Positions 32,050 through 63,900 of a stretch of 64,000 nucleotides of DNA are shown piece by piece; within the stretch, counting starts at the first letter, position 1, and each line of letters begins with the position of its first letter. The notes beneath the pieces are model-generated. The model was not told the origin of the DNA. It saw only the letters and a program-made list of their open reading frames with translations, and ran no database searches. A program made the translations under genes and the position numbers. Source of the stretch: a virus; the IMG/VR virus record IMGVR_UViG_3300045988_025287, positions 37,747-101,746 of that record; one strand, 5' to 3'.

Positions 32050-35000
32050 TTAGAAGTTCATTAATTGATTCTGTAGGTAATTACGTTTTGATTTAGGATC
32101 TTGAGCTTCTACAATACTCTTAAACGGCGTTACTTTGATAATATTCTTAAGTATTACAGGCATACCTTTATATACTCCTCTATCTATTATAGTAAATGGA
32201 GTTCTATCTCCAATATATGAAGCAGGATTAATCAAGTTTATGAAACTACTAATATTATCAAACCAATTGAAAGCTGCTGTTGGAGATTTAATTAAAGCCA
32301 TAAATTCAAAAGGATTATACATAGTACGGAATTCAAATGCTGAACGCATAGCTAAATAAGTTATTGACTATGTTAACCAAGTATCATAATCATCATCACC
32401 ATCAACTACACTAGCTATAACGAGAGCTACTGCTGTAGATGCAGTAATAAGGACTAATTCATTTAATACTCTTCTAACAGCATATTGTTCATACTCTTGC
32501 ATATTATTATAATCAGCTAATAACTATTTAATAGCAAAATGTCTATTAGCTATAATATTCTTCAAGAATCTACCTGTAGATCTATAGTAACCTTCCTCTA
32601 TAGTTTGTAAATCTAAATTATACTGTTTAGGTTTGAATCTATCGTGTAATGCAGAAATCATAAAGTTACGATGTAATACTAAGTATGAAGCCATCGCATT
32701 GGCATGTACAGCAGCTTTATCAACTTCTCGGATAGTACCATCTATTCGTCTACTTATAATTTCAATTCTATTACGTACATCATTTAATAGTCTATCTGTA
32801 ATTAAAGATTTATATTTATCATCTACTACTACATCTCCATTTGGAAGTTCTATGTACGCATCATATAACGTAGTAGTAAGCTATTTAAATTCTACTGCTC
32901 CTTTCTTTCTATCATTAGAGTAGAATTTATCTATATACTATTGCTTTGACATAAAACCTTCATTATCAACTAGACGATAATTATGATAGATACTTAATAA
33001 AGTATGACTTTTAACAGTGTAATCAGACTACGTATATCCAGCAAACCAAAAATTTTGATTAATAGAACGTAATACCTAACTCTAGTCTAATCTATCAAAT
33101 AACTCTTTGTTATCTTTTACTACCTAATTAAGCATAAGTAAATAAGGTAATCTACCTTTAGGATTAGGATTACCTATGTTCTACATCATGTTAGGTAGTT
33201 CTCTAGCAAATTCAGATCTAGCAAAGTTTAAATCTTCTAAATCAAAATACCTACCCATCTTAGCTTCTAAAGTAGTATAAGTAGCATCAGTAAAGAAAGA
33301 AGTACCTATAGACCATAAGTTACCAGATAGGTTTACTTTAGTAACAAATCCTCTAACAATATCTAAGGCTTTACCAAAGTTAATATCATAACCTAATACG
33401 TTACCCTCAATAGGAGTTTTATTTCTACCATACATCAATCTATCTACTAACAACTATGACTATTTATATACATTAGTAGATCCAGGTCCTTTTAATTCTT
33501 TAGAGGTTCTTATAGATAACTATTTTAGTAAATTGAGCATTAATTCTACTTCATCTTGTTTAGCTGACATATTTTTATAATTAGCAGCCATATTGTAGAA
33601 CTGTACTACAGCAGATACAGCATCCGTAGATATACTATTTGTATCTTCTAAAGGAGTAATAAACCTAGTAGGTATTACTTTAATAGGATCTCCATTAGGC
33701 ATAGTAGAAAACTCTTTAACGAAATCTAAATCATCTTCTTTTGTTATAGCAAAATCTTCTACAGCATATTTTAACTTATTTAATATTCCATCTTTACGAT
33801 TCAATACCTACATAAACCTAGCTTCTATTTGTGGCATCATATTTTCATTACTATTAGTGAGGAATGATATAAAACTCATAGCCTCATTCATTATATTAGT
33901 AATTTCATCATATAATTCCTTTACTTCAGGTTTATTCATTACTTCGTTATAAGCTTTACTATTATCATAATATTTCTTGTTAGGCTAAATAGCAGGTCCA
34001 TTTTCATCAAATTCAGGATTGTACCACTCTGAAGATTCTAGTATTTTAGAATATTTACTAGATGGTACTATCTCTGTATACTACTGAGCAAATTCAGGTA
34101 GTGGTCTAAGCTCTGTATAATATGAAGCTGGATGCATAAATCCTCTTACATCTTCATAATGATTATTATTAAACCATTCATTATATGCTTGGACGCCTGC
34201 ATTTCTAGCCTATTCCATATCATGATAATACTATTCTGTATTTACTATTTCTGCAAAATTTGAGAATTTATCAGCTCCTTCTGTTTTTTGAGTAGCAGTA
34301 TATGCATTTGCTATATCTTGATCTAACTATAATAAGCTTCTTTTCTCATCATCGCTTAATGAATTAATGTCAATCTTATTGGTATGAGGATCCTTATATA
34401 AATTTTGTAATTGTCTTCTCCTATTACGCAGTTTCTAATAAGTACTTTCGGGATCTTTGTTAGCAGAATCAGATTCTAGGTTAGCTATTCTGTCATAGAA
34501 ATCTTGAGTATACCTAGTTACAGTATTTCTTTGTTTCCATAACTATACTTCAGCGGTTTCACCTCCATATCTTTCTATTACTTTAGCTAAATCCTTTTCA
34601 TACTTATCCTTATCAATATCATATTTAATATGTTTATTTACTTCTTCATGAAAAGCAGTTAATTCATCTGCTATTACTCTATCTATTCCAGTTTTTTCAC
34701 TACCGTCTATATTAAATATATTAGATAGTAATCTTTTTTGTTTACGTAAAGATTCTAGCTATTTGTATTCTGCTTCTGTAAGTAGGTTTTCATACTATAT
34801 ACCGTTAATAGTCATAGATTGTGTAATACCATCTATCATACTTTGGATCTCTCTTTCAGCATCTCTAGTCTTCATAGACAGCATCTTATTTCTAAGAATA
34901 TAATATTCAGCTTTGTATCTCCTTTGAGCTCTATCTGCATACCACTTAGTTAGTTCATCAAACCACTTCTTTTGTATATCTTCATTTTGCGGTAACACAT

Positions 35001-36726
35001 ACATGTTATTATTGTCTTTAGATATACCTAATTTTTCAGCTAATTTATCCATGAACTATCTCTGGTCACGCTTTAATTGACCATTATTCAGTGGGGATAC
35101 CTTATTACCAGAGTATGTACCATCGTCTAATTTTTCATATAATAGCTTCTATACATCATTACCGTATTTTTCTTTGGCTACACTTACTAATTTAACTAAT
35201 TTAATACCAACTTCCATAGTTTCTCTATCTGTGGCATTTTTAGCATCATTAAGCAATTTGGCTATAATCTATTGCACAGCATTATTACTATTACTAGACA
35301 TACCGAACCAATCCATGAACAAACTAGAATCATGTTTAGGATCATCTAGCCAGTTAATAGTATCTTGTATCATATTCTGTGGCATACCTAATTCTGTAAG
35401 ATACTATTGTAATGCACTATAACCTTTAGATTTAAGTACATTTATAAACTTATTATTAACATTGTCTATTTGTTGTGATAAGGTAGTAGCTAATTCTTTT
35501 ATATAACTATAATCAGGTTTATCTTTGAGTATATCAGTAGTATCAAACAGATACATTATATCATCCATAAGAGGCTTATAGAAGCCAATATAATCATTAG
35601 ATAACTATCTAATCTGTTTAGCACTAATATTCTTTGTAGGTTTACTTAAGAATTTAATACTATCGTTTATAGATTCATCAATATGCTATAAGAATTGATA
35701 TATACCTTCCTCTGTTTCAGAATTAGCCAGTTGCTATATTGTAGTCTATAGTTGATTCCACACTTTAGGATTCTTAACGGTGTATCTCTTAATAGAATTT
35801 AATCTGTCTTTTAAACCTTTCTATATCTTTTCATATAACTTAGTTACTTCGTTAATTACTCTCATATCCTCTTGAGGTATTGGAGTAAAGTCTTCTGGAT
35901 TATAAGTTACAGTTGACAATAATAACAATTCAGACATCAAAGGCTCACCATTTTTATCTATAGTTTTTATTGAAAGATTATTATTGAGATAATCTTCTAA
36001 ATACTCACCTTCTTTCAATACATACATTGGAATACCTCGAACATTACTGATAGTATCATCTATACTCTATTTCCACAATCTACTTTCATGTTCTTTTCCA
36101 CCTCTACTGATATTCCTTTTAATAAAATCTTCAGTTGACAAATTTATGATTTTAGTAAAATCTTGAGGAAATAATTTTAATAAGGTGTGAGGAGAAGCAA
36201 ATAGTACTTTATTCTATTTTTTTGCTTCTTCTTTAACTCTATTCCATTCATCTGTTATGAATTTTATATAATCTGGATGTTTTTCAGGATATATTAGATA
36301 TTCGTTTCTTGCAATTTTGTATTCAGGTGTTCCTTTCTTAGTATTAGAATGCTATTCTATCCATTTATCTCTTTTTGAATTAAATTCTACATCCCAGTCT
36401 ATAAATTTATCTTTGAACTTACCTTTTTCAAAAGAATATGTTTTACCTATTGCAGGATGGCCGAATATAACATCTGTAGATTTAATCTAATTATTATACC
36501 AGTTTCTAAAACTGTTAGAATATATTACAGCTTTAGCTTTAATAGCAGCGTCTCTATCATTATTATATTGTTTAAGTAAATCCTAAAATAGTATAGAAGG
36601 CTCCCCATTTGGAGCCTTATCTATACCATGACCATTATTCAAATCCCAGACAGTATATGCAACTTCTGGTACAACTCTTTCTAGTTCCTTCCATTCTGGA
36701 AGATTTTTATTTGGACATTTATACAT
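32050..36726 (-). CDS. large virion-associated protein (1,558 aa) with N-terminal P-loop; 36 in-frame TAG
   Basis: Fragments 32050.., 33181.., 33520.., 34795.. and 35821.. share one frame. I read the whole frame and found 36 TAG and no TAA/TGA. ATG at 36726..36724, TAA at 32052..32050. The N-terminus contains FGHPAIGKTYSF (Walker A-like). Confidence 0.75.
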
Positions 36727-36737
36727 ATTATCTGGAA

Positions 36738-39700
36738 TTATAAATTACATATGAATTTTCTTAACGCTTCTTCAAGTTTATCTTGAGTATTAACATTATC
36801 TCTTGCCATCTACTGTGCAAATTCATTTAAATAGGTCTGTCTTTCATCAGCTGTTAAATCATCTAACGTATCTAATACTTCAGATATTCTTTTATTACCT
36901 TGGTCATACAAGGCCATTAAATCTACACCAGTAAGTTCCTTTACCGTAGATTTTATGTTATCTACAGTTTCATCCTCTCTGAATGTATTTTCATATACAT
37001 CGTTTTCAGTATCATTCTCATCTGCTTCTTCAAGTACAACACCTTCAACACTATCGTCAGTATCGTCTTGTTCGTACTCAAATATTCTATCCTGCTCAGC
37101 TATAGCGTAATTCATACCAGAATATGATGGTAATTCTCCAATGTGATGCATATACGCTTTATCTTGCTCAAAGTAAGTTCTTTCTACTTCATCAGTCATA
37201 TCAGATAATGCATCAAGATTATTCAAAGCTTCAAAATAATCCCATTCATTTTCCTTATTGAATTCAAATTGAGTTGATAAACCGTATTCTACGATAGTAT
37301 GACCTTTATAGCTGTATCCTTTTTTGGATATCAAACCATATATAGGAGTATATAAAATTCTACCAGTAAGTTTACCTTTCCATGTTCTTTCTGGTTTATC
37401 AATATAACCTATTAATCTATATACATGCCAATTAGCAGGTTCAAAACCTAAACTGTCTTTTATCTTAACATAAGGAGGGAATATTGGATATTTTATATCA
37501 TCTACTGTTACCCAGTTTAATGGTTTAATAACAGCAGCCTACATATCAGTTCTCTATCCAAATATAATATTTGGCATAACTGCATCTTTATTAAGGCTTA
37601 CAGATCTTAATGGAGCTTGATATTTACCACCATACATGTCTACAGGTCTTACAAGCTTATCATTCTACCAATTATTCAAGAATAAATCCTCAATGTCATT
37701 ATAAGATTTATCTGCATTATTAACCATCTGATCTAATTTACCTTGAATGAATTGAGTATAACCTATATTAATCCTTTCGCTATTAGGTAGGTACTGAAAG
37801 AACGCATTCATTACTGTATTATCTCCAGATGTGTAGAAAGAGTATACGGCTAAATCTCTGAACAATCTCTTAACTGAAGGTTCGGGATCATCTAATAACT
37901 ATCTCCAATAGTTGATAAGATTATTTGCTTGTGCCTAATCTGCATTTAACTATTCTGATCTATCAATAAAGTCTAATCCTTCCTTATTAATATTAGGTAT
38001 TAAGTAGTTAACGAAATCATTAGCTATAGTACCATCATTATTTAGTAAGTGACTTAATCTAGGATTACCCTTTAGTACTTCCTACTTAAATCTATACAGT
38101 CTATTAGGTATAGAATTACGTCCTTGGAACATAGTATTTAAGTCTATATTGTTATCCTTAACATATTGATTAAAGAATTGACTCTTTATCTAAGCTTCCA
38201 TACCATTTATTACAGCGCTAAGTAATTTAGAATCAGCATTAGCGGCTCTACCTACTAATGATAAAGCTATATGTTTTTGATTAGCAAATTGATCAGTATT
38301 ACGTAGTAATAAGTTTCTAAATATAGATGAACCCAAAGGTATACTATTTTCTGTTTTTGTACGAATGAATGTTTCATTAAAGAATCTAGTAACCTCACCT
38401 TTAGCGAATTTACTATTTTCTTCCATGTCTAACATACCTTTATAATATATATCTTGCTCAGCAAAAGTTTTACCAGTCTTCTTAGTATCAATCTTTGAGA
38501 ATTTAACAAGATTAGCTAAATCGTCTGCATAAGGTTTAAGAGCTAACCAAGCGTGGTATATTCTTACTTGTTCTTCATTAAAGTTTTTAGAATCTTCTGG
38601 ATTAATCTTTAATAACTATCTTGTTCTTGATGTTACTTCTCCTTTATCGTCAATATAAGTTCTAAATAGATCTTGATATTCTGAAGCTTTAGTTTTATTT
38701 TTTCTGTTTATATATTCGTACTTTCTACGTAACTTTTTAGTAGGATCATATTTATCTAATACTTTTTCAATAGCTTCTTTTTCAAGTTGGGAAGGAGTCT
38801 TAGTTCTATCAATACCGTACTTACCTTTAGTCTTAAGTACTTCATTAGCCATCTCTACTAAGATAGGTTGTCTAACAAAATAGAATGTTTGAGCGCCTTT
38901 ACCCGTACGTAATAAGAATGACACCATATTATATGTCCAAGCATTAACATTAAGCTTAACAATGTAAGGATCTTTAGCTATATCTACGAACGCATTAATC
39001 ATAGCAGATAACCAGTCTAATATGCGACCTCCTTTAGGATTACCTATTGTAGGATAGTCATATATTCGTCCAACATCTTCTATCTATAAAGTTCCTGTAA
39101 ATTCATTGCTCTACATTTTAATACCTACTAACTAAGTAAGGATATGATGAGCGTTATTCAACGCAAAAGGACCAATACCAGCTTTACCGCCAGTATATTC
39201 CGCCTTTCTATCTTCTTGGTATCTAGGAGTATATACTTCAAATGGTTCTGGATGATATGAACTAGTGCCTTCAATATCTTTAAGTATTCCCTTAACTGTA
39301 TCAGTAGCATCATCAATAGAACCTTTTAACATAGCTGAATTATCCTTAGTAAGAAGAACTTTGATATACATTTTAATAATGTCATTCTTATAAGCACTGG
39401 CTACATCTTCTCTAGTTAATGCACCGCCGTGAGTTATAATTCCCCCGTTTTTGTTAAAGGAATATCGAGCTACATATAGTTTATCAATATCGAAGTCAGA
39501 ACCTGTAAGCTTAGTAAATCCTTCAGGAAGCATAATAGTATCACCCATAATCTCAGGGAATACATCTACGAATCTTAGTGCGGATATTGATGCAATAGAC
39601 TGTGTAGGAATACGATAACCAATTCCGGTAGCATCTGCCCTCTATCCTATGATATTATGATCTAATAACCATTTTCTAGCTTGTTTAAATGTCATCTTAC

Positions 39701-42700
39701 TGTAGTTAGGTATCATATGTTTAAATAGATTTATACTTACTACAGAGTCCATAGAACCATCCTTATCATTAATCATGAGTAATGGTTTTCCATCATTGAT
39801 CATATCTTCTGTAATAACATTCTAGCTAGTAGCTTCGAGTCCAAATGCAGATCTTTGAATGAAAGCTCCACCAGGCATATGAACATCAATAACTAGTTTA
39901 TTAATCATAGATATAAATCTACTTTCTAACCATTTATTATCAGATAAAGCAGACAAAGGTATTACAAATGCATTATTCTTAGTTTTAAGACCAGATAATA
40001 CATTATCATTAGCGTCAGATTCTCTAGCGTCACGCTCTAACATATTACCTAACGCTGTAACATTTATATTACCGTCTACAAACAATTCATCTACTATATC
40101 CTATCTACCCATATTAGATAAAGTATTCAATGCTCCCATTACTGTATCATTGATTTCTCTACCTGTTACTTGAGAACCGTCTGGACCATATAAATCATCC
40201 TTACGTAAATTAGATAAGTTTACTTTTAAGAACTATGTACCAGCCATCTGTTCCGGATGAGTATGAGGATTAGTCTCTAACTGCTGTCTGATATATTTAA
40301 ACTTCTACCTATATGTTACGAGTTTACTCAAATCAGTAATAGTATTACCCTATCCGCTTTCTGCCCAGTCTACTATAGAAGCGGATAATACAGTCTAACC
40401 GTCTTTAAGTTCTATTTCACTATCTTTAGCCTTTCTATAGTATGCAGTAGGAGATTCTGAACCAGCTTTAACTGCAGAATCAAACATAGCCATATCAATA
40501 GGATCATTAGGATCTACCATTCTGTCATATAAAGCTTTAATATCTCCAGTAGCTACAGATTTAAATAACGGGAATAAAGCCATCTTATTAAAGTAAGGTA
40601 TACCTAATCCATTTCTAAATCTGGTACCGAATGCTATATACTTCATAGCATTTAATATAACTTTATTAGCTTCTGCATATAACTTAGGATCAGATTCCCA
40701 TTTATCTGCAGTATCAGGATCAGTCAATACTTCAAATGCTCGTTTAATGTCAGCATTCCATACACCACGCATTCTAAGTAAATCTCTAGTCATATTAGGA
40801 CTTATATATACAGCTGCATCAGCCACATTAACTCCTTTCTTATAACCAGCTACAGCTACTTTAGCTGCTTGTTTAGCAATTTTAGTTTCTTCAGGGTAGG
40901 TATTTTCTATATCACGTATGCTAAGATCTTTTACCTCATTCCAAGCTTCTTCTCCTAACATTTCCTATATAGTTTCTTTTATATTTGCCCTATAGAACAA
41001 ACCTTCATACTCATGGTATTGTTTATCCATGATTTCGTGATCTTTAAGCTCTGTAACTACATATTCATCACGCATTGGATCATTAAAGAAGTCTAATCTA
41101 TTATTCAAACCAGTTGATGTCAAAGAACCTAAACGTTTGATTTTGTCAATAGATACGTCTGTTATACCCTCTCTATCATACTTTACTTTGTAATACGCAG
41201 GTGAACCACTAAATAGCTTTTCTACTTCTTGAATAGATATTATACTATTCATCACATAGTCAGATATCATATCAAATACTGCATATGCTTCCGCATTAGC
41301 ACTATCCACACTCTAATATCTAGCTGATCTTTCTGTTACTACATTATCATCAAGTAATACATTACGTATACTCCATATATTACCTTGATCATTCATAGTA
41401 ATTAAACCAAGATCTCTAGCATATTCTAATTCTTTCTTTACTCTACGATTAATTACTCCAGCTAAGAAAGCCTTTTGTGTTTCTGGAGAAGTATTAAAGA
41501 AATAGTCTTTAGCTAATTGTAAACACTCTTTAGCTGATTTGGTAGGATCATTAAAGTTAACAAAACCTTTATTAGTATATATACCGGTCAAGAATAAGAA
41601 TCTAGCTCCATTGCCTTCCAAAGTTACAGTGTGCTTAACTCCATCTTTATCTTTATAATCATATTTATTAGGAGTATGGAAGTTTTTAATACGTCTAGAT
41701 GGTTCGATCCAATCATTATTTATAGTACCATCATCGTTATAATGTAACCCAGTCTCTGGATTATAATGATTAGGATCATCATCTATCTATCTTAAGCACA
41801 ACTCTATTTGGTTTAGTTCATCGTAACAATAACCTAATAGATAGTCCATAACTTGTTCGCCATACTGAACAAAAGTTTGACCATTATTATTATTGAATCT
41901 AATAGGTTCGTGTGGTAATGTTATTCCTTTAATGAAATGATATGTTTTCTTATCTGCTACTGTAGGGAATATTATTCTATTATTAAATACAGCTGTCATT
42001 TTAGCTATATAGTCCTCTCTATCAGTAATACCGTGGTAATCTCTACCCTTATCTCCAGTAGTAGTATCCTTAAAGTTAATAAGGGTTTCCATTGATAGAT
42101 TTCTATTACCTCCTCTAACTGCCTGCAATATAATAGAATGTTCATTATAAACTACAGATTCTAATTCCTAGAATACAGTAGGATCTGATACTATCTCATT
42201 AAGTCTATCTTTAGCAAAATTATTCTGTGATACCATATAATAAGAATTACCATCAGGACCATAGCTACTCAAACTATTATCTGTAGCATGTGTAAATGCA
42301 TAATAATTAGCTAACTCTTTAACGTAACCTATATTATTCCATACCTATGTAGGATCAACAGTTACTTCATTCACTTTAATTTCTTTAATAGTACTATCAT
42401 TATTTATAGCATTTTTAATTGCTTCAAGTACACTTACTATTTTCGGAATGCCACCGAAATTAACAGTTGAACTGGAGAACTCGCTGATAAGAGTAAATGC
42501 ATCTGATTTAGGATTACCATATCTACCAGATAATAACATTTTGTCTATGGTAGGTACATCAATACCGATACCTATTACATTAAACATGTTAACTAAATAC
42601 TTCTTAAGCATTTTCTAGTTAGATGTTTCGTGCAAATCAATATTTCTATCTCCTATCTTAAGTATACCTTTATTGTTTCTAAAGGCAGTTATAACACTAT

Positions 42701-45700
42701 TAAAATTCTTAATTACAGTATCAAGAGCTTTTTTAGATCCTTCTTCGGCTATTATTACGCCTTCTTTATCGTATTTAAATAATCCAGCATTAGTAAATAA
42801 TGCTTGAGACCATACTTTAGGGTAAGTAGCTGCCTTAACATCGACAGTGTTGTCTACGAGTTCATGCTTAATAAAACCAGTCTCTGGATCTTTACTTATC
42901 TTAGCAGTTACATAATTGTTTATATCACAGGTAACCACTGTCTCTATTTTGGTAAGCATAGCTTCAGCATCAGCAGCCTTAACTAAATCTTCTTTCTGAT
43001 TAGAATCTTTAATCAGTCTGTTAAGTTTAAATAATAAAGCAGAATGAAAAGCACTACCATTTTGAGCATAAGTAGCTACTTTATCAACTATATTAGCTAT
43101 AGTACGACACCCGGACAAATCTTTAAGTATATTGTCCCATGCAGTTTTAGCATCAACAAAATTAGCAAAATGAGTAATAGGATCTATCTTCATAGACATG
43201 GAGCCGTCTGGGCTAATTTCATATAGAGGTATAGTTTGGAAGAAGAACTTAACCTCTGCAGGAGCATTATCCTTAATGGATATATTCATACCTTCTACTG
43301 TATGCTATCCTATATTAACTCTTTCCGCTCCCTCTTCTATATCACTTATAGTTTCATCCTCATTACGATCTATAGCTCTAATACCTAGTTGTTTTAATCT
43401 AGTAGCTATAGTTGGCATAAATACAGTCTCATATTTCTCAAGAATCTCATCCATTACAGGAGAAGGATAAGTTCTAGCTTGCGCTTCTATAATAAGCTTA
43501 AGCCTTTCAAATTGTTGATTATCCTCAGACAATGCTGAATATTCAATATTAGGCACTGCAGTTTGTCCATTTACTCTAAAGAATGCATATGTGAGAGACT
43601 TGATTATATTATCAAATTGATTGTATTGAGTAATTGTTTTTAACTCATAACCAGCTACTTCTAGATTAGGACCAGATGTACCATATATTTGTCTAAATCT
43701 ATTTACATTCTCTTCGTTAGGCTTAATTCCATAGAACTTTCCCCTATTAATATCAGAATATATCTTAGCTAATGCATATTGACCAGTTCTAGCCCACAGC
43801 TTAATAAAATCTAAAATCCTTCTAAACCAATTCTTAGTATCAAAAGCATAGCTTCCAGCTTCATTTAACATAAAGTCTCTAAATTGATCTGCTAAAGCCT
43901 CTTCTATTTGAGAATCCGTCATTTGAGGATTCTTTTTTCTCATTCTATTATATATTCTTTCTCTTCTTTTATTATCTATCAAGAGTAAAGAAACTCTATG
44001 CCATGCTTCATGATACTCTGTACCTACAGGGGCAAAATTACTAATTAATACAGAATCTTCTATTACTCTACCTACTACAGCTGTACCAGCTTCTGTAACA
44101 TCTATTATAGTAGGAATAATCTGAGGAGATGTTCCAAAAGTAGAACTTAACCATTCTTTGGCTTGTTCTGGATCTATTCTTTCATTTACCCATAGAGTAT
44201 TGTCTTCCTATACTTCTACCTCCATATTAGGGCCTCGTTTCTTCCCATCTAATATAGCAAATATATCTGCCATATTCACAGAAGTCTACTTACCACTTTC
44301 ATCTGGTAGAGTAAATACTTTAGTTTTAATAGGATCTTCGTATTCTTTCTCTACCTTTTGTTGAGCTTGCTACTGTATCTTTTCAGCAGCTTTATCTGCT
44401 AACATTACATCATCAACATATATATTAGAATCCCATAACTCATCAGCTATATCAGTAAGTAATATACCTTGTTTGATATACCATCCTAAAGTACTCATAC
44501 CGTTAGGATGTTTACTGTCGATAGTTTTACGACCATTACTTCCTGGAATTATACCAAATTCACTCTAATCTAACTCTATTAAACCAGGGATAATAGTAAG
44601 CTTATCTATGTTGCTATTCTTTAAGAACGCAGCAACTGACTTAAATCTAGGATCTGTTACCTGTGATTGTAAATCTCCTCCTAAGTAATAAGTATTAAGT
44701 GCTTGTTCATCTATATTCCAATGGAAATTAGACATTATATAATTTTTAGCTTGTTGTCTAATATCCGGTTGACTAACTAAGTCACTTATACTATAGCTAG
44801 TATTACCTATTACTAAGTTGCCATTATCATTTACAAAAAATTGTTTTCTTTGTTTGGCTTGAATCTGTTGGGGAGTAAATCTGGTATCATTAGGATTTAC
44901 AGCAGTATGAGGACCAAAGTTTACTATAAAATCTAATATATCAATAGGTCTAATATTAGTCTTAACTCCTTTAGCATCAGTATAGAATTGATCGTTACTA
45001 GTAACTAAATCTAATATCAGATCCGCTATTTGAGGTTTATCTGCAAATGTCTAATAGTTCAATTTAACTAGCTTAGTATCGTATTCTCCATCTAATCTAG
45101 GAACTTTTAATACCCACATGGGTTGACCAAGACTACCACCTTTTACAGATAATATAGTGTTTCTTAATCTTATTACTTCATTGTTTATAGGACCAGTAGT
45201 TATACCTATCTACGTATTATCTGGGGTTATCTCAAATGGATCTTTTATAGTTAACCATGCTGAATCTAGTAAGCTTCTATTCTTAGGGCTGTTATCTGGA
45301 TTTTTTTCATTTCTAAATCTTCCAGTAGTAGCTCTAAGAGCTGTAGGAACTACCTCAAGGTTTGGATTCTTTTTAGTTTGTTCATACAGTTCTATAATCT
45401 TATTTCTCAATCTGACCAGATTATCTACAATCTTAGTCTATTTTTCAAACGGTAGCCTATTAAACGGGCTATATCTACCTCTAAGACCACCTTCAACAGT
45501 TTTAATAGCTCCGGCGTATTTTTTACCTTTGTAATCAAATATAGCATAAATAGCAGGTTCTACTTTTCCGTCTTTATTAGTATAATCGTGTACTTCAAAG
45601 TGAACCCCGTTGTTCATTACTTCAGGTATAAAGTCAGGTTTACTACTTACTAACGATAAATCATCATCATTAAGGTAGTCTTCCATTCCTTGATATCTCT

Positions 45701-48700: not shown

Positions 48701-49226
48701 CTTTATCTATTTCTATTAACGCGTTATCTAGATTGCCTTGTTTAAGACTACCTGTAATATAACTATTAAGATAGTTATTGTTAAATTTACCAGATATAGC
48801 AGTATCGTATGCAGATTTATTATTAACTTGCATTAATGATGCTTCCTACAGCTATTGTTTTAATTGTTCATTAGTAGGATCCTAGCTTAACTATCTAGAC
48901 AATTCTATTACTGCTCTACTAGAGTTTATATAATCTTTTAGGCTGATTAAGGTATTATAATCCTAATCAGCCATCACATACTCTCCTAACTTAGCATCTC
49001 TTTCAGTTTGCGCTTTTGTTAAATTCCAATCATAGAATGCGTTAGAAGCCCAATCTGTGAAACCATAATTGTCAAGTGCTTCTTCGTAATTAGCATCTGG
49101 ATTAGCCATACGATGCATATACTCCTCAGTATTAATCTGAGGAGCTATCATAGCATCATACATTGCTGTTCTTTGTCTAATACTATCTATTAATGATGTA
49201 TCATATACTTTCTTTTTCTTTGCCAT
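36738..49226 (-). CDS. giant 4,162-aa virion protein containing a crAss-type RNA polymerase module; 60 in-frame TAG
   Basis: 19 track fragments share one frame and each ends in TAG. Every gap read in that frame gives 60 TAG and no TAA/TGA. ATG 49226..49224 is preceded by in-frame TGA 49268..49266. Ends at TAA 36740..36738. GSDFDIDKLY at about 39.5 kb is a DxDxD loop as in two-barrel RNAPs (phi14:2 gp66-type). Confidence 0.75.
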
Positions 49227-49228
49227 AT

Positions 49229-51202: not shown

Positions 51203-53033
51203 TGTTACCTCCTTTTCTTAACCATTTATTAAACTGTCTAATAGTATCTGCTGTATAACCAGATTGCAAAAATGGAGCATACATAGCTAACATTGCATTA
51301 TCTCTAGCTTCCTGATTACGCATTAACTCTCTATTCTGAGCCCATTGACTTAACTGACTTAAACCAGTCCTAAGTATATTTCTAGCAGTAGCTCTATTCT
51401 GAGCATTAGCTTCATTAGCCATATTCGTAGCATTAACCCATTGCTGTCCTAAACTATTCATAGTATTAGCATAATCACCTAAGTACTGATTGTTAACATT
51501 ACTTTCTTGAGATCTTAAACTAGCTATAGCTCTGTCAGTATTAACAGCTGACTGTAATCTATAAGCTAAATTAGCTCCAGTACTAGTATTAATCTGACTA
51601 GCATTATAATTACTAGTAGCTCTATTACGGTTTAAATCTTCAATAGCAGGACTAATATCATATCTACGTCTACGCATCGTATTACTAATACTAGTAGCAT
51701 AAGGATTATATACTGCATCAACTGTTTCAGGTCTACTAGTAAATAGATTAGACATAACAGGAGTTAAAGAAGCTATCCCTGACAATGCGCTTCCTACTTT
51801 ATCAAATAATTTATTACGTCTGTCTGCTCTAGTTTCTCTATAACTAATATCATTAGGTGTAGCACTAGGAGACTCTACAGTATCATAGTCTGTATCATAC
51901 ACAGATTCTACTGTTGGAGCGTCATACCAAGTAAACGGTAATTCTGGTTTACCTTCATCAATTAATCCTGCACTTGTAGAAGGAGTAGTTCTGCGTCTCT
52001 TAACTGAAGTACTACTAACACTTGTAGGAGTTGTAGTTGATGCAGTTTGAGTATTATTAGGGTTAACAGGTATATGATACCACTGATTATTACCAGTTCC
52101 CCACTGTACTCCAGCCCCCCATTTACGATTAGGGTTATAGATAGCATCTACTATTCTATCTCCTAAACCAGGTTTAATCTCATCACCTAAAGCAGCTGCT
52201 TGTATCTACTTAGTCTTAGGTTTAATACCTTTACTTTGTTTAACAGATTCCTGCATAGCAAATAACTAATCATGAATCATATTATTATTCATTTCATTTA
52301 ATTTTGCTGCATTCTCTGCAAATCTGTCATTATACTTACTTTTCTTTTTTGCCATCATTTTCTCACCAAGTTGTGCAAATGTTTCTTTTCTACCAGGTAC
52401 TTTAAGCTTATCACTTAATACTCTACTGCCTTCAGGTAAACTAACTAAATTACTATCAGTAGGATTATTATTCTCTGGTACTTTACTTATACTTCCATCT
52501 GGAGTCTATATTAATTCACCATCATCTACGTAAGCTAAAGAGGAAGACACTCCTCCATTAGCCATAGTATCTGTATTCATCCCTATCATATCTTCATATG
52601 CTTCACTTTGTAGGTAATTAGTACCTTGTACAGCAGCTCTATTACTATAAGCATTCTTCTTAATTGCTGCTCTCTTTCTACGTAATCTTCTATTACCGAA
52701 TGCTCCAATTAGACCACTACCAAGACTACCTTCATCATAATCTGTGAACGAAGTCATTTCAGCTTCTTCACCAGATCTGCCTATTAGCCCTATACCAGCT
52801 CCTACTGCAGCACCAATTGGACCAGCAACTTGGAAACCAGTAGCTGCACCACTGGCTATGTCACTTACAGATTGTGCAGCAGCTTGCCCTCCTGTAGTAG
52901 CGTTAGATTTCTAAAAAGGAGTAGTTAAAGTATTTAATATATCAGGAGCACTTTCAAGCATGTTATTCCCAATTTCTTTGAATTGAGTTCCAAATGCATA
53001 TGCTGGTACTTTTGTTTTCTTTTTACTTTTCAT
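51192..53033 (-). CDS. virion protein with Gly/Ala-rich N-terminal region (613 aa)
   Basis: Fragments 51192.. and 52506.. are joined in frame with only TAG between them. ATG 53033..53031 is preceded by TAA 53042..53040. N-terminus MKSKKKTKVPAYAFG..GPIGAAVGAGIGLIG. Confidence 0.7.
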
Positions 53034-53034: not shown

Positions 53035-56000
53035 TTAAATTAATGAATTTCTGTATGTTGTTGTAATCTATGGTATTTCAAAAGTATGATCTATATCAGA
53101 ATCTAACTCATAATCGCATATCATATACTTACCTCTTAACCTAGCAGGTAACGATAACGCATCTTCATTCTTATCTGCTCTAGGTACTGGGAATCTAAAT
53201 GTATCTTCTCTATAATCAGTTATTATATGTTGTTCAGGAGTAATAACATTACCTTCTTCATCAAGTTCTTCTTTAGTATGTTCTCTAACTGATTCTTGAT
53301 GTTTAGTACTGAATTTCATATAATCTATGATATCGTCCTTAATAGACTCTTGATTACCATCTCTAAACTCTCCTTGTAATCTAACATTATCAAATACTTT
53401 AGTATAAGGAGCATTCTTATTAATAACTATTTCTAATTTAGCTTTTCTATCTAAAGGAGTTAACCCTATTACTCCAGTATCATGTATAGTATGCAATTCA
53501 TTGTCTTTTATTGCTACTACTCTATCAGAAATAGGTAACGACCATTTAGGATTAAATGTATAGAAAGATGTAAATCTACCTAACTACTCATTAAATATTA
53601 ATGGTTTGTTTAATATATTAAACCACACCTCATTATACTTCTTATCAAATAAAGACATAGCTTTAGCCCTATCTTCTTTAATGTTTTTATTAAAGTAAGA
53701 TTGTACCTGCTTTTCTTTAGATAACTAACTTACTTGACCTGTATAAGAACATATTTCGTTCTTATCATAATCGTACCAATAAAGCACATTATCTGAATTA
53801 ATTATACTCTTATCATTCTTAATAGACGAACCATTAGTAGTAGTTACATAGTCGAATCTACTTAATATACCACCAGTACCTAATACTAACTGATTTACAT
53901 TATCATCAGTAATAAGTGACCTTTCATTGACAGAAGCTACTCCTACTCCAGTATCTTGGAAATAGAATAGTCTATCTTTGAATACTTTTAGATTGGTTAT
54001 GTCTCCCCACTGATTATCTACATCTAAGTAATCAGCTACTTTGAATTTAGACCACTAATCTATTACTTCATTATTAGTCTTAGCCTATGAAGTTAATATT
54101 CTATTAGTATATCTTACATCTTTATCGGCATACATAGAATTAGGTACATACAATTTACCAGTATTCTATGCAGAATAAACAGAATTATATACAAAGTAAG
54201 GAAGATCTTGTACATGTATGTCCTACATCTAAGTAGGCTCTAACTGCAACCAAGAATCTGCAAAATTTGAACTAGTTACTGTTCTATGAATCTGATCTCC
54301 GTGGAATAAATTCATATTAATAGAACTTTCAAATGGTATATAAGCTCCTATATAATTCTTCATTCCGTCCCATTCTTTAGCGTCAGGTAATTGGAATAGC
54401 ATAGTATTAGGATAATCTAATAAGCTTAGATAAGTATCTCCTCCAAATACATACTTGCTGTCGTGCGCTGCTATACTTATGTATACAGAATTCTGTCTAG
54501 ATGAGAATGTGTTACCACCATATATAGAATTACCATCACGTTTAACATTAAATACAGGAATAGCATTAGTAGAATCAAAAGGATGAAGTTCTGGATATTT
54601 ACTAGTAGGTACGCTATTAAATCCAGAGAATACATTCTATAATTCTGGTACATGGGCTATAATACACGGACCAGCTGGACCTTGTAATGATTGATTATCA
54701 TTATGAATAAAGTCAGACATAGAGTAGTTAGTATAAGTTCTATTACCAACATTTATTCTTTTAGCTACTACATCTGGAGCTCCATACATATTATAATCTA
54801 TATTGGGTGGGTATTTAGCATCTTCAATATACGATGTAGATTGAGATTGTCCAAATGTTGGAACGAAATATTTAGCTATTGATGCTCCACGGTATACCTT
54901 ATTACCTCTACTATCTTGATAAGGGAAACCTACAGCAAGTACGTTAAGCCCCCATCTCTAGCCATAACCTACATATGGCACAGTATCTTGCTGCAATACT
55001 CTACCATCTATCTGAGTAACGTAATCCGCCGCAGCAAATATACTACGACTTACACTATTACCAATAGTATTACCATTTACATAGTTATCTTTAAAATCAT
55101 CAAACTTGCTATCATTTACTTTACCACCTACAAATGGAGAATAGTATGAGCCTATACCATCTAAGTATACACTTCCTTCAAACAGTTTAGTTGCATCATC
55201 CCCTTGTACACATATTTCTGGAGATACTAAACGTATATAATCATTTACTCTCATAGTAAGAGAGAAATTACCAATATCTTCCGCTGTACCTGTTGATATT
55301 GCTAATTGTTCACCAATCAAACTACAGAAGAAAGGAGTAGGTCTCATCTCCAAACTACTATCTAATTCAGATCCCTATCCTACATATTTATCCTGCTCTT
55401 GAATTCTATACTCATATACGTAACTACCTACTGTTTGCATAACTACAGTCCTATCACGTTCAGTTCTATCACAACGAACTATCTCGTAACTCACTGCACC
55501 TACAGGCATCTTCTTTACTTTGAATTCTACACCTAGAGCATTACCTATAAGAGTATTGTTTTCATATCTAAACGGAGGCATTTGTGAAGCATGAGGCATT
55601 CTAATATCACCTATCCAGAGTACAGGAGAAGCTACAGATTTATCATTATAGAATATTATACCAAATCTATATATCTCATCTCTTTGGTAACCTCTATAAT
55701 TAGCAGCTATATATGGATCAGCATAATTGGGTATATATGGATTATTCTTCTATTCTTCAGTAGGCTGTACTATTTCAGGCATTTTATTATCGCCCCTGTT
55801 TATATACCTAGTATTATTCCTAACAGTAGGTACATCCATACTACAGGATTGATTCAATCTAAACTTATCTTGTTTACTACTTAGATTTATATCTGTAGTT
55901 ACAAAGGAATACTCTATATTAATACCATAACCGCCTAATTCACCATCCTTGTTGTATATATATGTATTCTAAGAATTAGATGCATCCTTAGTATACTTTA

Positions 56001-57270
56001 CATTGTTGAAAGGATTTATACAATCATGCGTAATAGGAATACGTTTAATAGCTTCATCATCTGTTATAGACAGACGAATGTTATTACTATCTAAACTAGA
56101 TAATAGCTACACACTCCCTTCTGAATTAGCTCTGTAAGCTCTAGCATCATAGTCATTACCATCTTCATCTTCTGGTATCCAAGTATTCTCTGTTACATTA
56201 GCTGCAAATAATCTATTTTGCATTTTAGCAAGAGTCTACGCTATAAACTGATAACCAGTCATAGCATTGAATTCATCTACAGATATATCACTTAAAGTAG
56301 CTCCATAATCTACATACTGTATACTTGTTTGACCATCGGGTATATCTATCTCATCTACTATACTAATAGTAGGGGTAGAATTATTCTGTTCATAGAATAT
56401 ACGAATTACTCTTAACTTATTAAAGTCCTAAAGTGATAATTCAGTAGATAGCATTACTGATTTATTTGATGCTTTATTTAGACCAGTACCTTTATATTCA
56501 GAACTACCTTGGTTAGTTACACTATTTGTTAAGTGAATTAACTCACTCATTGGAGAAGTAACAGTTTCAGTGCCATGCACATTAAATAATTGATAACAAT
56601 ATGTTACCATTCCAGCTTTAAGATTACCTTCAGATAACCAACGGAATTTAAACGGCAATAAACTTACTACTGGAGTTATTTCTAATGAACCAGGGTTGAT
56701 TATATTTCCATTCTCATCTATAAGATTAGAATTGTCTATATAATCATTACTCATTATATTAACAATCTTGATAGGGCTATTTCCATCAGTGAAGTATATT
56801 TTTATATTAGTATCTGATTCATAGTTACCTACAATACTTAGTGTAGGATTTTTAGATAAATCTTCACACAATCCTAGAGCTCCTTTACATACTAATTTAA
56901 TTTGAGGCATATTACTATCAAACCCCATTAATCTGTATATCTTATTAATGTTATCGGATGTTTTAGTTATTACTACTGCAATGTCATTTATAGTAGTAGT
57001 ACCTATTATAGTCTCATCTTTAGGTATAATAGTATCGTATCTTCTAGGGTTCTCTATACTTTGTAATACTCCTGTAGTTCCTCCATCGTTGGTGACAACA
57101 CGGACATCCTCAGCATACCTGTACTGAGTATCCGGTATCAAATTTACATCCTGGTCCATATTAAGACCTTGTGTAAATGTATTAACTTGTGCAGTATTAC
57201 TTATCATATTGTCCCTCCTTAATTTTAACTCTTCTCCAAGTAAACCCTCCAGCGTGTTTATGTCGTGCAT
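53035..57270 (-). CDS. large structural (tail-type) protein, 1,411 aa; 16 in-frame TAG
   Basis: Fragments 53068.., 54958.., 55375.. and 56428.. share one frame, with 16 TAG and no TAA/TGA. ATG 57270 is preceded by TAA 57279..57277. TAA 53037..53035 lies 1 nt before the next ATG. The tail role is inferred from size and position only. Confidence 0.7.
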
Positions 57271-57925
57271 TTTTTCTTAAGCAATCACTGATGCTCTAAC
57301 GAGAAACGCCTGTTGCTCTACTTGCTTCTCTTATAGAGTCATATTGAGCTATTATTGTATTGCCATCATAATCGAGTTGTACTACCGGTCTTTTATTTTT
57401 TATCTCATATTCTTTTATGTGGTATTCATCCACTCTATTAGCTTTAGTATAGGACCATTGAAATCCGCAACATGATTTCTTTCTTCCATCACAACAGGCT
57501 CTTATATTATCAGGCAAAGCTTTAAGCTCTCTAGAAGCCTATCTAACACTATCGTATTCTCTTACATAGTTACCCTATTTATCATAGCAATAAATCTTTC
57601 TACCATCTACCTCACAACAATTATAGTATCCATATTCATGTATATATTTAGATTCAAGATATTTGATAGTACTAATATTATCCGCGCACTCTTCTACTAT
57701 TATAAAATTAAAATTTTCGCACCCGATTTCATCAAAATCTTGCTGTAATTTTTTATTAATTCCTTTACCGTTGTGTAGACTTCTATAATGGGCTTCGTAA
57801 CGAGCTCTTATATTAGTAGAGGATCCTATGTACATTCTACCGTTCAAGTTATTCTTTATAGCGTATATTCCACAAGTATAACGTGGAATAAGTTTACTAT
57901 TTGCTTTTATAAACTTTGTTTCCAT
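57197..57925 (-). CDS. GIY-YIG homing endonuclease inside the structural operon (242 aa, 3 in-frame TAG)
   Basis: CGIYAIKNNLNGRMYIGSSTNIRARYEAHY (GIY-YIG core). Read-through of TAG 57575, 57539 and 57296 gives ..IREASRATGVSRqSISDCLRKNARHKHAGGFTW.. (NUMOD1-like). TAATG overlap upstream. The 3' end overlaps the next gene by 74 nt. Confidence 0.8.
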
Positions 57926-58854
57926 TATGGTCTATTCTAATTATAAATATCTTGTCGTTCTCCTACTGTACTATAAAAAGTATCATGGGCATCTATTTCC
58001 GGGTATAATTTTAACCAAGAGTTCTACACCGAGGCCAAATCATCTACGGTAGGCATCATAGCTTCAGCATATGCTTGCTTACGATAGAAGTTATAAGAGT
58101 TGCGTATATCATAATAATCTCCCTGACTTATTTGACCTTTTAACTTTTTAGGATACATTAATTTCATAGTAACATACCAGTATATAGCTTCCTTATAAGA
58201 CTCTAAATCTGGTATCATTGGCATACTATCTTCATCTGTATATATAGCATAATATGATATCTTAATGTATCCTCTAGGTACATTAGTCATTATATAACCA
58301 GGTTTAGTCATATACTGTAAATCATAACTATACATAGTACCATCTTTATGACCTATTCTATTACTTAAATATCTGCCATTTGCTGTAGGTACAGTATTCT
58401 AGTTTATTAATGCACTTAATGTTTCTCTAAGATTATTATCTTCATTTAACTTGTCCAATGCTTCTCTATCGTTAGTAAGATTAAACATATTCTTAACTAA
58501 TGGGAACATGGCTGCATCCTGCACTAGCATACAAGCTTTACTACAACATTGATTATCATGAGATACACCAAAACTGGATGTTGCTTTTCTCATAGGTAGC
58601 CATCCACCATTACAACAATATGAATATGCTACCTAATCTAATTTATACAAATCACAAGGTAATGATACTTGGTGGCATTCTATTGGAAGTATTTCTACTT
58701 TATGCTCAAACTGCTATATAGCTCCAATCTTAAGTATGGATTCCATAATCCACTCCCGAATATCTGTAATACGTATCTCATCTTCTCTTAAATCGAGATC
58801 TGCTATTACTTTAGCTACTACAGAAGCTGAACTAATCATACGATTATTTATCAT
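57925..58854 (-). CDS. structural-module protein (309 aa, 5 TAG)
   Basis: Fragments 58024.. and 58399.. are joined in frame. ATG 58854 forms an ATGA overlap with the upstream stop. TAA at 57927..57925. Confidence 0.65.
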
Positions 58855-59307: not shown

Positions 59308-59952
59308 TTATTTATCACTAACTCTGTTCTATGTATCATCATGCGCATCATTAATATCATCACTAGGCATAGTAATCATAAAACGTAATTCTCTCTCTAA
59401 TATCATTTGTGTAATAGTTGGTATCATTGCAGATGGTATAGGGAACTCACTATCTGGATCAAAACAAGCATTGAGTTCTGTAGGATCTTCAGCTATTACA
59501 TCTACGCTGATATACTCTAACTGATTAGAATCACCATCTACGTATATTCTATTGTTTTTAACCCATGCGATATAGTCTTTACATGTAGCTTTTCTATACT
59601 TCTATAATTTAGCTTTAGTACGACTACCTATCTAAATTATATTACCAAACATATCACGTACATTTATTACTCCAGGTCTATAGTTAAAGTCTATTAACTT
59701 AGGGAGTTCTTTATCTCCTACATAAGTAAAGTAACCTGGTACAGTTTCTTCACGATCTAAATGGATAGGTTCTATAGTAGTAAGATAAGCTTCGCTTACA
59801 TCGTGCCCTTTATCGATCTACTATTTTATCAACATAGCTCTGTAACCTATAATCCACTTTTCAATTTGTGCTCTACTTAAATGCTCAGACTCTGCAATAT
59901 TATTATTGCGAGCAATAAGTAGAATATTATCAATTAACTAGTTAAGTGTCAT
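59308..59952 (-). CDS. structural-module protein (214 aa, 6 TAG)
   Basis: Invisible in the ORF track. ATG 59952 is preceded by TAA 59958..59956. TAA at 59310..59308. MTLNqLIDNILLIARNNNIAESEHLSRAQIEKW... Confidence 0.6.
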
Positions 59953-60651: not shown

Positions 60652-60697
60652 AATAAGTTAGTTTTATAAGGGCTCAATTAAGAGCCCTTAATTTATA

Positions 60698-61138: not shown

Positions 61139-61155
61139 AACTGCCTCCTTTCTTA

Positions 61156-62108: not shown

Positions 62109-62744
62109 TTAATATCTAACGTAGCGAACAGCTTTGCCACGTCCATATTCTGAATAAGGTTCGTACTCTTTTTCTCTTTCGAGCATGCGTTCATAATCGT
62201 CTTCATAGTCTCTAGCTCTGCTAGTAGAATATACTCTACGACCACCACGCATCATACCACCTCTTCTACCACCTCTACGGAATAAGCCTATGCGTTCAAA
62301 TTCGTCATCATCATCTTCTTCGTATTTATCACGTTTCTCAACTTCTTCCTCATAGCATTCCATTTCAGCTTGTCTGATCTTATCACACATAACATAAATA
62401 TAGTAATACCACATCTTACCTTCATCAATGTCTTTGTCATTGATCCAAGCTTTTGCCAATTCAACAAAATGCTTAGTGCTGTTAGAGTTAGTAATATTTA
62501 TAATTACTTTGTAATAATCAGAATAAACCATGTTAAGTGCTACGAACCAATCATAACGGTTAAATCTGCTACCCAGATTTATTCCGTACTGACTAGCTAA
62601 TGCGGTAGTTTCTTCTACAGACCAATGTGGTCCACGAGTACCATCCTCATTTTCCATTTTACTTACAGCTTTACGGGCATGTTCCTCATTGAAGTGAGGA
62701 CCGTGTTCTGCTTCGTAAGCCTTTACACGAAATATTCTATGCAT
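62109..62744 (-). CDS. hypothetical acidic protein with RGG-box (211 aa), no TAG
   Basis: ORF track, intact in the standard code. RRGGRRGGMMRGGRR plus an EEDDDDE tract. Confidence 0.65.
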   Translation of the reverse strand: MHRIFRVKAYEAEHGPHFNEEHARKAVSKMENEDGTRGPHWSVEETTALASQYGINLGSRFNRYDWFVALNMVYSDYYKVIINITNSNSTKHFVELAKAWINDKDIDEGKMWYYYIYVMCDKIRQAEMECYEEEVEKRDKYEEDDDDEFERIGLFRRGGRRGGMMRGGRRVYSTSRARDYEDDYERMLEREKEYEPYSEYGRGKAVRYVRY

Positions 62745-62780
62745 ATTATTATTGATTAATATTATTGAATATATTGATTA

Positions 62781-63419
62781 TTATTTAGGTAACTCAATTA
62801 CACGAGTATTAGTTACCTTGATTATTGGGTTACTGTTGATTATCTGATATTTTTTGGTACGTATACGTTTCCAATCAAAGTGGAAGAACCTAACGAAACC
62901 ATTACGATATTTATTCTTGTATTCTTTCTTTTCTTCTACAAACAAAATCTATTGATTCTTAATATCCAATGTGGCTTTAAGGATTGAGTCCTTTCTACTA
63001 ACTATGATAGTTGTTAATGGATTAATTTTAAGTTCTTCGTCAAAATCTATTAGCCTGTGTTTTATAATAGTTCTAACAGAATCTTTAATCTCAGTATTGA
63101 TTACATTTACATCAGTTAGGTTCTTGTCTTTGATTTTAAGTTTTTTCTAGGCATCCTTAGCTTCCTTTAATAAACTATCATTACTAGTATTTAGTTCTTC
63201 TATAGTAAGCTATAGTACTCTGTTTAACTATTCTTTCTAGGATGCTAATTGCTCGTAAGCTCTAACATTGTTAGTTATTCTGTCAATCTCTTTATTCTTC
63301 TTCTGTAGCTAATGGTTCTAAACAAAAACAGTCGCAATAAGTAAACTAACTAAACCTACTGCGACTGCTCTGAAATTCCTTGTAAACCAATTAACTATTT
63401 GTTTTAGTATTGGAATCAT
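62781..63419 (-). CDS. N-terminal TM plus coiled-coil protein (212 aa, 7 TAG); i-spanin-like candidate
   Basis: Invisible in the ORF track. ATG 63419, TAA 62783..62781. TM helix AVAVGLVSLLIATVFV followed by a heptad-rich region. Overlaps the holin 3' end by 29 nt. Confidence 0.45.
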
Positions 63420-63900
63420 CTGGTAATTCTTTATCTAATGATATATCTAAATATTTCTCTCCTTTTGCTTTTATAACCTTTTTGAGGATTTTCCATATTT
63501 TCCATTTAGGATATAAGTCGCTAAATGATTCTAGTAACGACCAAAACTCAACTAAGGCTATCATTCCTGCTACTATTTCTACAGCGTGCAGGTTAATAGA
63601 GGTTACTACCAGCTAATCTATTATTGATGCACTAGTTATTGCTACTGCTGCATCTCTAGTCTTCCATATAGTTTTCCACGCTTTATGTGATTCAATCTTA
63701 GGATGCCCATATTTTTTAGAGACTTTATAACCATAGATAGCATCAAGTAGTATCAATATACCGACAGCAGTGATAGGAACCCATACAGGTGCGAATATAG
63801 AAAGTAGCCCAGTTATAACAGAAGCTACGCATTTATCCGCACTACTGAACATGTTCTTAAATATTGACATAGTATGTTCTCCTAATTGTTGGTAATTCAT
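63391..63900 (-). CDS. holin-like multi-TM protein (169 aa, 1 TAG)
   Basis: Track ORF 63613..63900 extended through its TAG to TAA 63393..63391. TM helices and ILILLDAIYGYKVSKK, a motif typical of phage holin families (by eye). Confidence 0.55.

Follow-up and report, generated by a model that had tools for sequence, protein, structure and literature searches.

TAG as a probable glutamine codon in the late genes and a stop codon in the plus-strand arm of a delta-group crAss-like phage

When a long run of genes falls apart into short fragments under the standard code (translation table 11), are its stop codons real, or is one of them read as an amino acid, and if so, which amino acid is it and what decodes it? 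The question is raised by the minus strand between positions 32,050 and 63,900 of a 64,000-nucleotide (nt) stretch of viral DNA, positions 37,747 to 101,746 of IMG/VR record IMGVR_UViG_3300045988_025287 (the window; position 1 is its first letter). This region, the late arm, carries genes for lysis, the tail and the virion RNA polymerase, and the plus-strand arm, at about 3.2-32 kb, carries replication and regulatory genes. We hold with high confidence that the window derives from a delta-group crAss-like phage with a genome of about 100 kb, in which TAG has two meanings, late TAG stands for glutamine (Gln), and the phage likely provides its own tRNA with the anticodon CUA, hereafter tRNA(CUA).

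Computational re-translation of the late arm, in which reading frames were ended by TAA and TGA alone, was compared with translation under table 11. With TAG as sense, the arm resolved into 15 contiguous, back-to-back reading frames (Table 1), one fewer than the 16 genes counted in the first-pass annotation. These frames comprise 10,557 codons, 163 of which (1.5%) are in-frame TAG, and, as had been claimed before, not one of which is TAA or TGA. Since TAA and TGA account for 9.3% of codons when this DNA is read in its two other frames, the probability of this absence is about 10^-449. The longest frame free of TAA and TGA measures 12,525 nt as opposed to at most 504 nt across 100 shuffles. Under table 11, the minus strand yields 44 open reading frames (ORFs) of at least 60 amino acids (aa), much like the 45 or so fragments initially noted, and 39 of the 44 terminate at TAG. 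Coding density under tables 11 and 15, the comparison proposed in the first-pass annotation, was 49% and 99%, respectively. Reading TGA as sense gave zero gain on this arm, and reading TAA as sense gave a small one (open frames of 600 nt or more covered 8,448 nt instead of 6,393); the apparent gain on the plus strand with TAA as sense may come from the merging of adjacent TAA-ended genes.

The distribution of TAG within the arm is largely as first described. The density over the large-gene spans is one TAG per 43-88 codons (with the two genes of 49,229-53,033 pooled), in agreement with the estimate of one per 40-90, and the counts of 36, 60 and 16 TAGs were reproduced for 36,726-32,050, 49,226-36,738 and 57,270-53,035. 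The span 49,229-53,033, which had been taken for a single gene with about 20 TAGs, consists of two genes in different frames that overlap by 11 nt and contain 12 and 4 TAGs. TAG is indeed a sense codon in the late arm, but not quite in the whole of it: 14 of the 15 genes contain TAG, and the gene at 62,744-62,109 has none and is the only one to read identically under both codes. All 15 genes end as predicted in TAA (14 genes) or TGA (one gene), but their junctions are not uniformly tight, with gaps of -74, -29, -13, -11, -4, -1, 1, 2, 7, 11, 29, 36, 46 and 135 nt, so that several spacers are 29-135 nt long. The gap of -74 nt becomes -11 if the muzzle gene starts at 57,207, which is the likelier start (see below).

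The window belongs to a gut crAss-like phage of the Suoliviridae (delta-group) in the Crassvirales. Hallmark virion genes include those matching the Pfam models crAss_MUZ, CrAss_Ring_1 and CrAss_Ring_2 and a 6VR4-like RNA polymerase gene. The plus-strand arm has a nucleotide identity of 90-97% to cr53_1 (NC_055889.1, Blohavirus, Loutivirinae), and at 51-64 kb the identity to cr53_1 and to cr115_1 (NC_055898.1, Birpovirus) is about 85-94%. At 32-51 kb, which comprises the RNA polymerase gene and its two neighbors, cr114_1 (Uncouvirinae), which comes closest among GenBank phage records, is only about 73% identical, and many IMG/VR contigs are 94-99% identical. The contrast between 32,050-51,000 and the rest of the window, which is 85-97% identical to cr53_1, suggests a mosaic genome shaped by module exchange between subfamilies.

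We compared the orthologous arm in eight Suoliviridae genomes, five recoded (cr115_1, cr53_1, cr114_1, cr109_1 and cr52_1) and three that use the standard code (Boorivirinae cr50_1, cr10_1 and cr1_1). The five recoded relatives have the same recoded late arm, with 166-217 in-frame TAGs per locus. The gene order of cr53_1 and cr115_1 is that of the window, and their RefSeq records already contain full-length read-through coding sequences; relative to these two phages, the window has an additional GIY-YIG gene between the ring protein 1 and muzzle genes and another beside the thymidylate synthase gene. The virion arm of the Boorivirinae is orthologous and identically ordered (25-65% aa identity) but has just 7-12 in-frame TAGs per locus, and table 11 gives full coding.

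These comparisons bear on the possibility that the TAGs are real stops and that the arm is a set of fragmented pseudogenes, an assembly artifact or a series of many short genes. The 44 ORFs obtained under table 11 are what one would expect in that case, but the frame is always retained across TAG while TAA and TGA are missing altogether, homologues and Pfam models align across the TAGs without breaks, and the same pattern recurs in five independently assembled relatives. The retained frame, the alignments and the relatives already refute this explanation, and we assign it almost no probability.

With the Boorivirinae as standard-code references for the meaning of TAG, orthologues were aligned gene by gene, only well-aligned columns were retained, and the TAG columns were scored against the empirical substitution profile of each residue in the same alignments. 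Comparison with homologues had been put forward in the first-pass annotation, and the alignments did continue through the TAG sites, with Gln far above background: it was found opposite a window TAG in 32 out of 104 aligned cells (31%), and its background in the same columns was 3.7%, which corresponds to an 8.3-fold enrichment. The next commonest residues were E, K and S, the usual substitutes for Gln. The log-likelihood at the TAG columns was -262.6 for Gln and -308.1 for Lys, the runner-up, a lead of 45 units. Window TAGs were most often matched by TAG (100), CAA (74) and CAG (28) in the five recoded relatives, with a CAA:CAG ratio equal to the arm's own usage of 246:95, and the reverse comparison, of the relatives' TAG sites with the window, agreed. 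Counting TAG raises the Gln content of the late arm from 3.2% to 4.8%, the plus-strand arm having 3.6%, and TAG then provides 32% of all Gln codons in the late arm, with shares of 0 to 75% in individual genes.

Domain matches tell the same story. Full-length matches to crAss_MUZ, CrAss_Ring_1, CrAss_Ring_2 and NUMOD1 span TAG sites, and the two local contexts singled out earlier were both recovered. The first is a Gln run in the RNA polymerase gene that ends in TAG at 45,869-45,840 (CAA CAG TCA CAG CAG CCT CAG CAG GAA TAG), and the second is the sequence GVSR-TAG-SISDCL of a NUMOD1-like helix, where a Pfam NUMOD1 match does occur and the TAG occupies 57,298-57,296. Judging by these alignments, TAG in the late arm is a glutamine codon.

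A sense codon for a different residue, such as Lys, Glu, Ser, His or pyrrolysine, is highly improbable. E, K and S rank behind Gln opposite TAG, but Gln leads by the full 45 log-likelihood units, and close relatives exchange TAG mostly for CAA and CAG. His occupies 1 of 104 cells, even though the body of the relatives' tRNA(CUA) is similar to that of some tRNA-His genes. ARAGORN labels the same tRNA "Pyl," which is merely its name for the anticodon CTA, and mass spectrometry of other, related crAss-like phages has proved that TAG encodes Gln there (Peters et al. 2022, PMC9523058).

TAG does not have this meaning throughout the window, nor is recoding limited to the virion/lysis arm, since a second GIY-YIG homing endonuclease gene with five in-frame TAGs adjoins the thymidylate synthase gene outside the late arm. 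A third homing endonuclease gene, of the HNH/NUMOD4/NUMOD1 type, follows the primase gene at 28,895-29,455 on the plus strand. In-frame TAG is present in both minus-strand homing endonuclease genes and absent from the plus-strand one. No gene in the plus-strand arm requires read-through of TAG, and seven of its ORFs (at least 60 aa) stop there. The sole in-frame candidate on this arm is the tandem TAG-TAG at 18,916-18,921, which stands at a gene end. The cr53_1 record merges the equivalent of 18,292-19,491 into one read-through coding sequence, which is read here as two genes; this fusion shows that code 15, when applied to the entire genome, over-reads the early arm. Backup stops are found 0-11 codons 3' of the TAG stops of the plus-strand arm; they are not clearly above chance at 32% G+C, and we make no claim for them. 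TAG has two meanings in one genome, stop in the plus-strand arm and sense in the late arm.

What decodes TAG? The window was searched with ARAGORN, with and without introns, with Rfam at gathering and permissive thresholds, and with a T-arm motif scan. The tRNA calls of ARAGORN were limited to Leu(UAA), Arg(UCU) and an odd "His(AUG)," Rfam added no further tRNA at either threshold, and neither program detected a tRNA(CUA) in the window. The T-arm scan returned extra sites at 11,361, in the region of a transfer-messenger RNA (tmRNA), and at 27,851, both of which were rejected as suppressors for lack of a usable CUA anticodon. Because the window has no tRNA(CUA), we infer the decoder from relatives. 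In cr53_1, a canonical 75-nt tRNA with the anticodon CUA and an encoded CCA end, named tRNA-Gln in RefSeq, occupies 6,664-6,738, about 350 nt upstream of the gene for the large terminase subunit (TerL). Theta ribozymes have been reported next to suppressor tRNAs, but Rfam detected no ribozyme beside the one in the relatives. A 30-nt piece of this tRNA was found in 54 IMG/VR contigs. One tRNA(CUA)-bearing IMG/VR contig matches positions 1-173 of the window at 98.8%, and in a 97-kb tRNA(CUA)-bearing contig positions 1-536 map 4.6 kb from the tRNA, on the strand of the recoded genes. Four tRNA-bearing contigs (3300045988_052671, _023879, _022001 and _007360) share a 35-mer of the window's RNA polymerase gene, and the stretches around it are 95-98% identical to the window. 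Since contigs of the same lineage carry tRNA(CUA), this genome probably has one too, about 4.6 kb past the left edge of the window.

Several observations besides the lack of a tRNA(CUA) in the window weigh against Gln decoding by a phage tRNA. The complete genome of cr115_1 is ~88-94% identical to the window in nucleotide sequence over 51-64 kb, though it has no detectable tRNA(CUA); thus, the suppressor is not detected in every recoded relative. A scan of bacterial genomes found the D-arm of the suppressor to be common to tRNA-His of Patescibacteria, eukaryote-like tRNA-Gln contaminants and other CUA tRNAs. Among the 30 ORFs of the plus-strand arm, Pfam detected no release factor or aminoacyl-tRNA synthetase. 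Release factor 1 (RF1) terminates at UAG and would have to be outcompeted at each of the 60 TAGs of the RNA polymerase gene. In the standard-code alignments, the 31% Gln opposite TAG compares with 44% opposite CAA and CAG, so that conservation is slightly weaker at TAG sites than where Gln has its usual codons. Recoded crassviruses without an apparent suppressor are a recognized gap (PMC7886860; bioRxiv 10.64898/2026.08.21.746148), and Borges et al. (bioRxiv 10.1101/2021.08.26.457843) put the share of TAG-recoded genomes with a phage tRNA(CUA) at about 40%, which makes it a common but not a universal feature.

Could the host alone read through TAG, by means of a suppressor tRNA of its own, a near-cognate tRNA-Gln or a change in RF1, without any phage suppressor? 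This would agree with the failure to find tRNA(CUA) in the window and in complete cr115_1, as well as with the recoded Suoliviridae without detectable suppressors in the literature (PMC7886860; bioRxiv 10.64898/2026.08.21.746148), but not with the canonical tRNA(CUA) that heads the recoded block in cr53_1 and in the same-lineage IMG/VR contigs. Moreover, 60 TAGs in one gene would demand decoding at ~99% per site or better, which would be beyond leaky read-through, and the genes of the plus-strand arm still end at TAG, which indicates that the early host state terminates at TAG. We regard decoding by the host alone as quite unlikely.

The most likely decoder remains a phage-encoded amber suppressor tRNA with the anticodon CUA, which would be charged with Gln. 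The plus-strand arm is readable by the host's standard code, and TAG is a glutamine codon in the late arm and is used in the same way in the two minus-strand homing endonuclease genes. Late and lytic proteins would then be delayed until the tRNA accumulates, as in the model of Borges et al. (bioRxiv 10.1101/2021.08.26.457843). As in the closest relatives, the tRNA(CUA) would closely precede the terminase gene on the recoded strand and open the recoded block. The long leftward late unit would begin with the tRNA; the terminase, portal, capsid and tail genes would follow, then the holin gene, and the unit would continue in the window as far as 32,050.

A code-switch model for alternatively coded gut phages has been put forward (Ivanova 2014; Borges et al., bioRxiv 10.1101/2021.08.26.457843) and validated by proteomics (Peters et al. 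2022, PMC9523058). The model shares with this phage the early genes compatible with the standard code, the recoded structural and lysis genes, the recoded homing endonucleases and, in relatives, the suppressor tRNA upstream of the recoded block. Also shared is the top TAG share of tail and lysis-regulator-like genes, 58-75% of Gln codons here, to which the lysis/tail gene bias reported by Borges et al. corresponds. In contrast to the model, there is no release factor/tRNA synthetase module among the 30 plus-arm ORFs, and the suppressor would lie beyond this window.

Amber-to-glutamine recoding of late genes in delta-group crassviruses is already known, since RefSeq relatives carry the read-through annotation, and delta-group crAss-like phages recoded at TAG (genetic code 15) have been described (Yutin et al. 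2021, PMC7886860). The first-pass annotation was right that such recoding in a crAss-like phage is not new in kind. The main value of the present case lies in correct annotation; biologically, it is one more known case and raises no new question alone. Table 11 splits the 15 late genes into about 44 fragments and conceals the muzzle protein, the ring proteins, the holin and the 4,162-aa virion RNA polymerase. Because the late arm needs code 15 and the plus-strand arm needs TAG as a stop, any single code is wrong for this contig.

Table 1. Coordinates of late-arm genes, of recoding-related sites elsewhere and of RNA features in the window
Feature	Position	Strand	Remarks
Late protein, function unassigned, 1,558 aa	32050..36726	-	36 TAG, 47% of its Gln codons
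Virion RNA polymerase, 4,162 aa	36738..49226	-	60 TAG; PDB 6VR4 match
Late protein, 657 aa	49229..51202	-	12 TAG; frame differs from that of the next gene upstream
Late protein, 613 aa	51192..53033	-	4 TAG
Crassvirus muzzle protein (tail)	53035..57270	-	16 TAG; Pfam crAss_MUZ and crAss_MUZ_C
GIY-YIG/NUMOD1 homing endonuclease	57197..57925	-	3 TAG, one in the NUMOD1 helix (57,298-57,296)
Tail ring protein 1	57925..58854	-	5 TAG; Pfam CrAss_Ring_1, E=1e-119
Late protein, 149 aa	58851..59300	-	6 TAG; phrog_12177 match
Tail ring protein 2	59308..59952	-	6 TAG (67% of Gln codons); Pfam CrAss_Ring_2, E=1e-76
Late protein, 187 aa	60088..60651	-	5 TAG
Late protein, 156 aa	60698..61168	-	1 TAG
Gly/Cys-rich protein, 307 aa	61156..62079	-	1 TAG; phrog_16490, E=3e-49
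Protein, 211 aa	62109..62744	-	No TAG
Protein, 212 aa	62781..63419	-	7 TAG (58% of Gln codons)
Holin	63391..63900	-	1 TAG; Pfam Phage_holin_4_1, E=1.5e-6
Second GIY-YIG homing endonuclease	442..1161	-	5 in-frame TAG; Pfam GIY-YIG, E=3.9e-6
TAG, true stop	16183..16185	+	TGA directly after; TAA in orthologues of cr60_1, cr52_1 and cr113_1
Tandem TAG-TAG, gene end	18916..18921	+	TAA and two separate annotated genes in four relatives
RAGATH-6	4,879-5,029	+	Rfam, above gathering score
RAGATH-7	5,124-5,346	+	Rfam, above gathering score
Hatchet ribozyme	6,270-6,366	+	Rfam, above gathering score
Hatchet ribozyme	8,141-8,276	+	Rfam, above gathering score
RAGATH-9	9,702-9,862	+	Rfam, above gathering score
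Phage tmRNA	11,080-11,390	+	Rfam permuted tmRNA, 56 bits vs cut-off of 47
tRNA-like gene	21,135-21,206	+	ARAGORN "His(AUG)"; just upstream of the DNA polymerase gene

The leftmost late protein (32,050-36,726) had no Pfam match and has homologues in cr109_1 and cr114_1 with 57-65% aa identity. Its 4,162-aa neighbor matches the DNA-dependent RNA polymerase of phi14:2 (PDB 6VR4) with E=5.8e-34. The orthologues of the 657-aa protein are 58% (cr114_1) and 46% (cr109_1) identical, and the 613-aa protein has 82-83% aa identity to its counterparts in cr115_1 and cr53_1. In the muzzle protein, positions 2-1224 of the 1224 positions of crAss_MUZ are aligned (E=0) over most of the TAG sites. The muzzle gene probably starts at the ATG at 57,207 rather than at 57,270: this ATG is preceded by AGGAGG, tblastn matches begin at residue 21-22, and homologues and the Pfam model start within residues 21-27.

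The homing endonuclease encoded next to the muzzle gene matches Pfam NUMOD1 (E=4.4e-16), Pfam GIY-YIG (E=3.5e-9) and PHROG homing endonucleases. The 149-aa protein has the top TAG share among the late genes, 75% of its Gln codons. The 212-aa protein matched neither Pfam nor PHROG; the records of cr53_1 and cr115_1 list its orthologue as a lysis regulator (LysB/FtsL-like). A G+C-rich hairpin (AAGGGCTC...GAGCCCTT) at 60,655-60,697 on the minus strand, in the 46-nt spacer after gene 61,168-60,698, looks like an intrinsic terminator within the late arm.

Several RNA features of the plus-strand arm are more unusual than the recoding. The 2.1 kb at 16,190-18,290 contain no ORF longer than 57 aa in any frame and have no Rfam match. 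The region is found in the same position in cr53_1 (93% identity) and in cr4_1, cr52_1, cr60_1, cr113_1, cr109_1 and cr56_1 (71-77%); it is unannotated in most relatives, and part of it underlies a hypothetical protein in cr113_1, cr109_1 and cr56_1. Most of its indels have lengths that are not divisible by three. RNAalifold gives a consensus energy of -237 as opposed to -98 to -125 in 12 column shuffles, and 87 pairs covary as opposed to 14-37 in the shuffles. Judged by conservation and predicted folding, the region resembles one large structured RNA or several clustered RNAs.

The RAGATH and hatchet motifs form a cluster at 4,879-9,862, interspersed with small ORFs and tRNA-Leu(UAA). The tmRNA has a tRNA-like acceptor, D-arm and T-arm at about 11,290-11,385, and its apparent tag frame, GNTSYVTDYTGIAA, terminates at TGA-TAA, not at TAG. 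ARAGORN also calls a permuted tmRNA in cr115_1. A tie of the tmRNA to amber suppression is speculation.

The tRNA-like gene at 21,135-21,206 lacks G-1 and C73 and also occurs in cr53_1. Its anticodon arm, CGCUACUAUGUAGUGUG, is predicted to form no normal anticodon loop and folds best with 3 nt looped out above a 6-bp stem. All ~49 copies recovered by a scan of IMG/VR have this arm unchanged and differ in the variable loop and acceptor; the arm thus offers no covariation by which to decide its fold. The gene was considered as a divergent suppressor and rejected as the decoder because the same genomes have the canonical tRNA(CUA). In the 223-nt intergenic region before the primase gene, at 27,664-27,886 on the plus strand, a perfect T-arm motif (GGTTCGATTCC) at 27,851 is accompanied by an acceptor-like stem and by 13 bp of long-range complementarity; the region gave no tRNA or Rfam call and leaves too little room for D- and anticodon arms.

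It is conceivable, if unlikely, that more than one suppressor tRNA exists and that RNA genes of the plus-strand arm take part in, or help cope with, amber suppression. The genes concerned would be the tRNA-like gene, the tmRNA, the 2.1-kb region, the two hatchet ribozymes and the three RAGATH RNAs, and the tmRNA could rescue ribosomes that read through TAG stops of the host. Such an arrangement, if true, could account for recoded relatives without a detectable tRNA(CUA), such as cr115_1.

Two proteins of the plus-strand arm may be added. The small protein encoded at 5,815-6,240 has a sub-threshold match to the C-terminal domain of ribosomal protein L7/L12 (23.3 bits vs a cut-off of 25.9), and a clear ECF-type sigma factor is encoded in this standard-code arm at 12,726-13,319.

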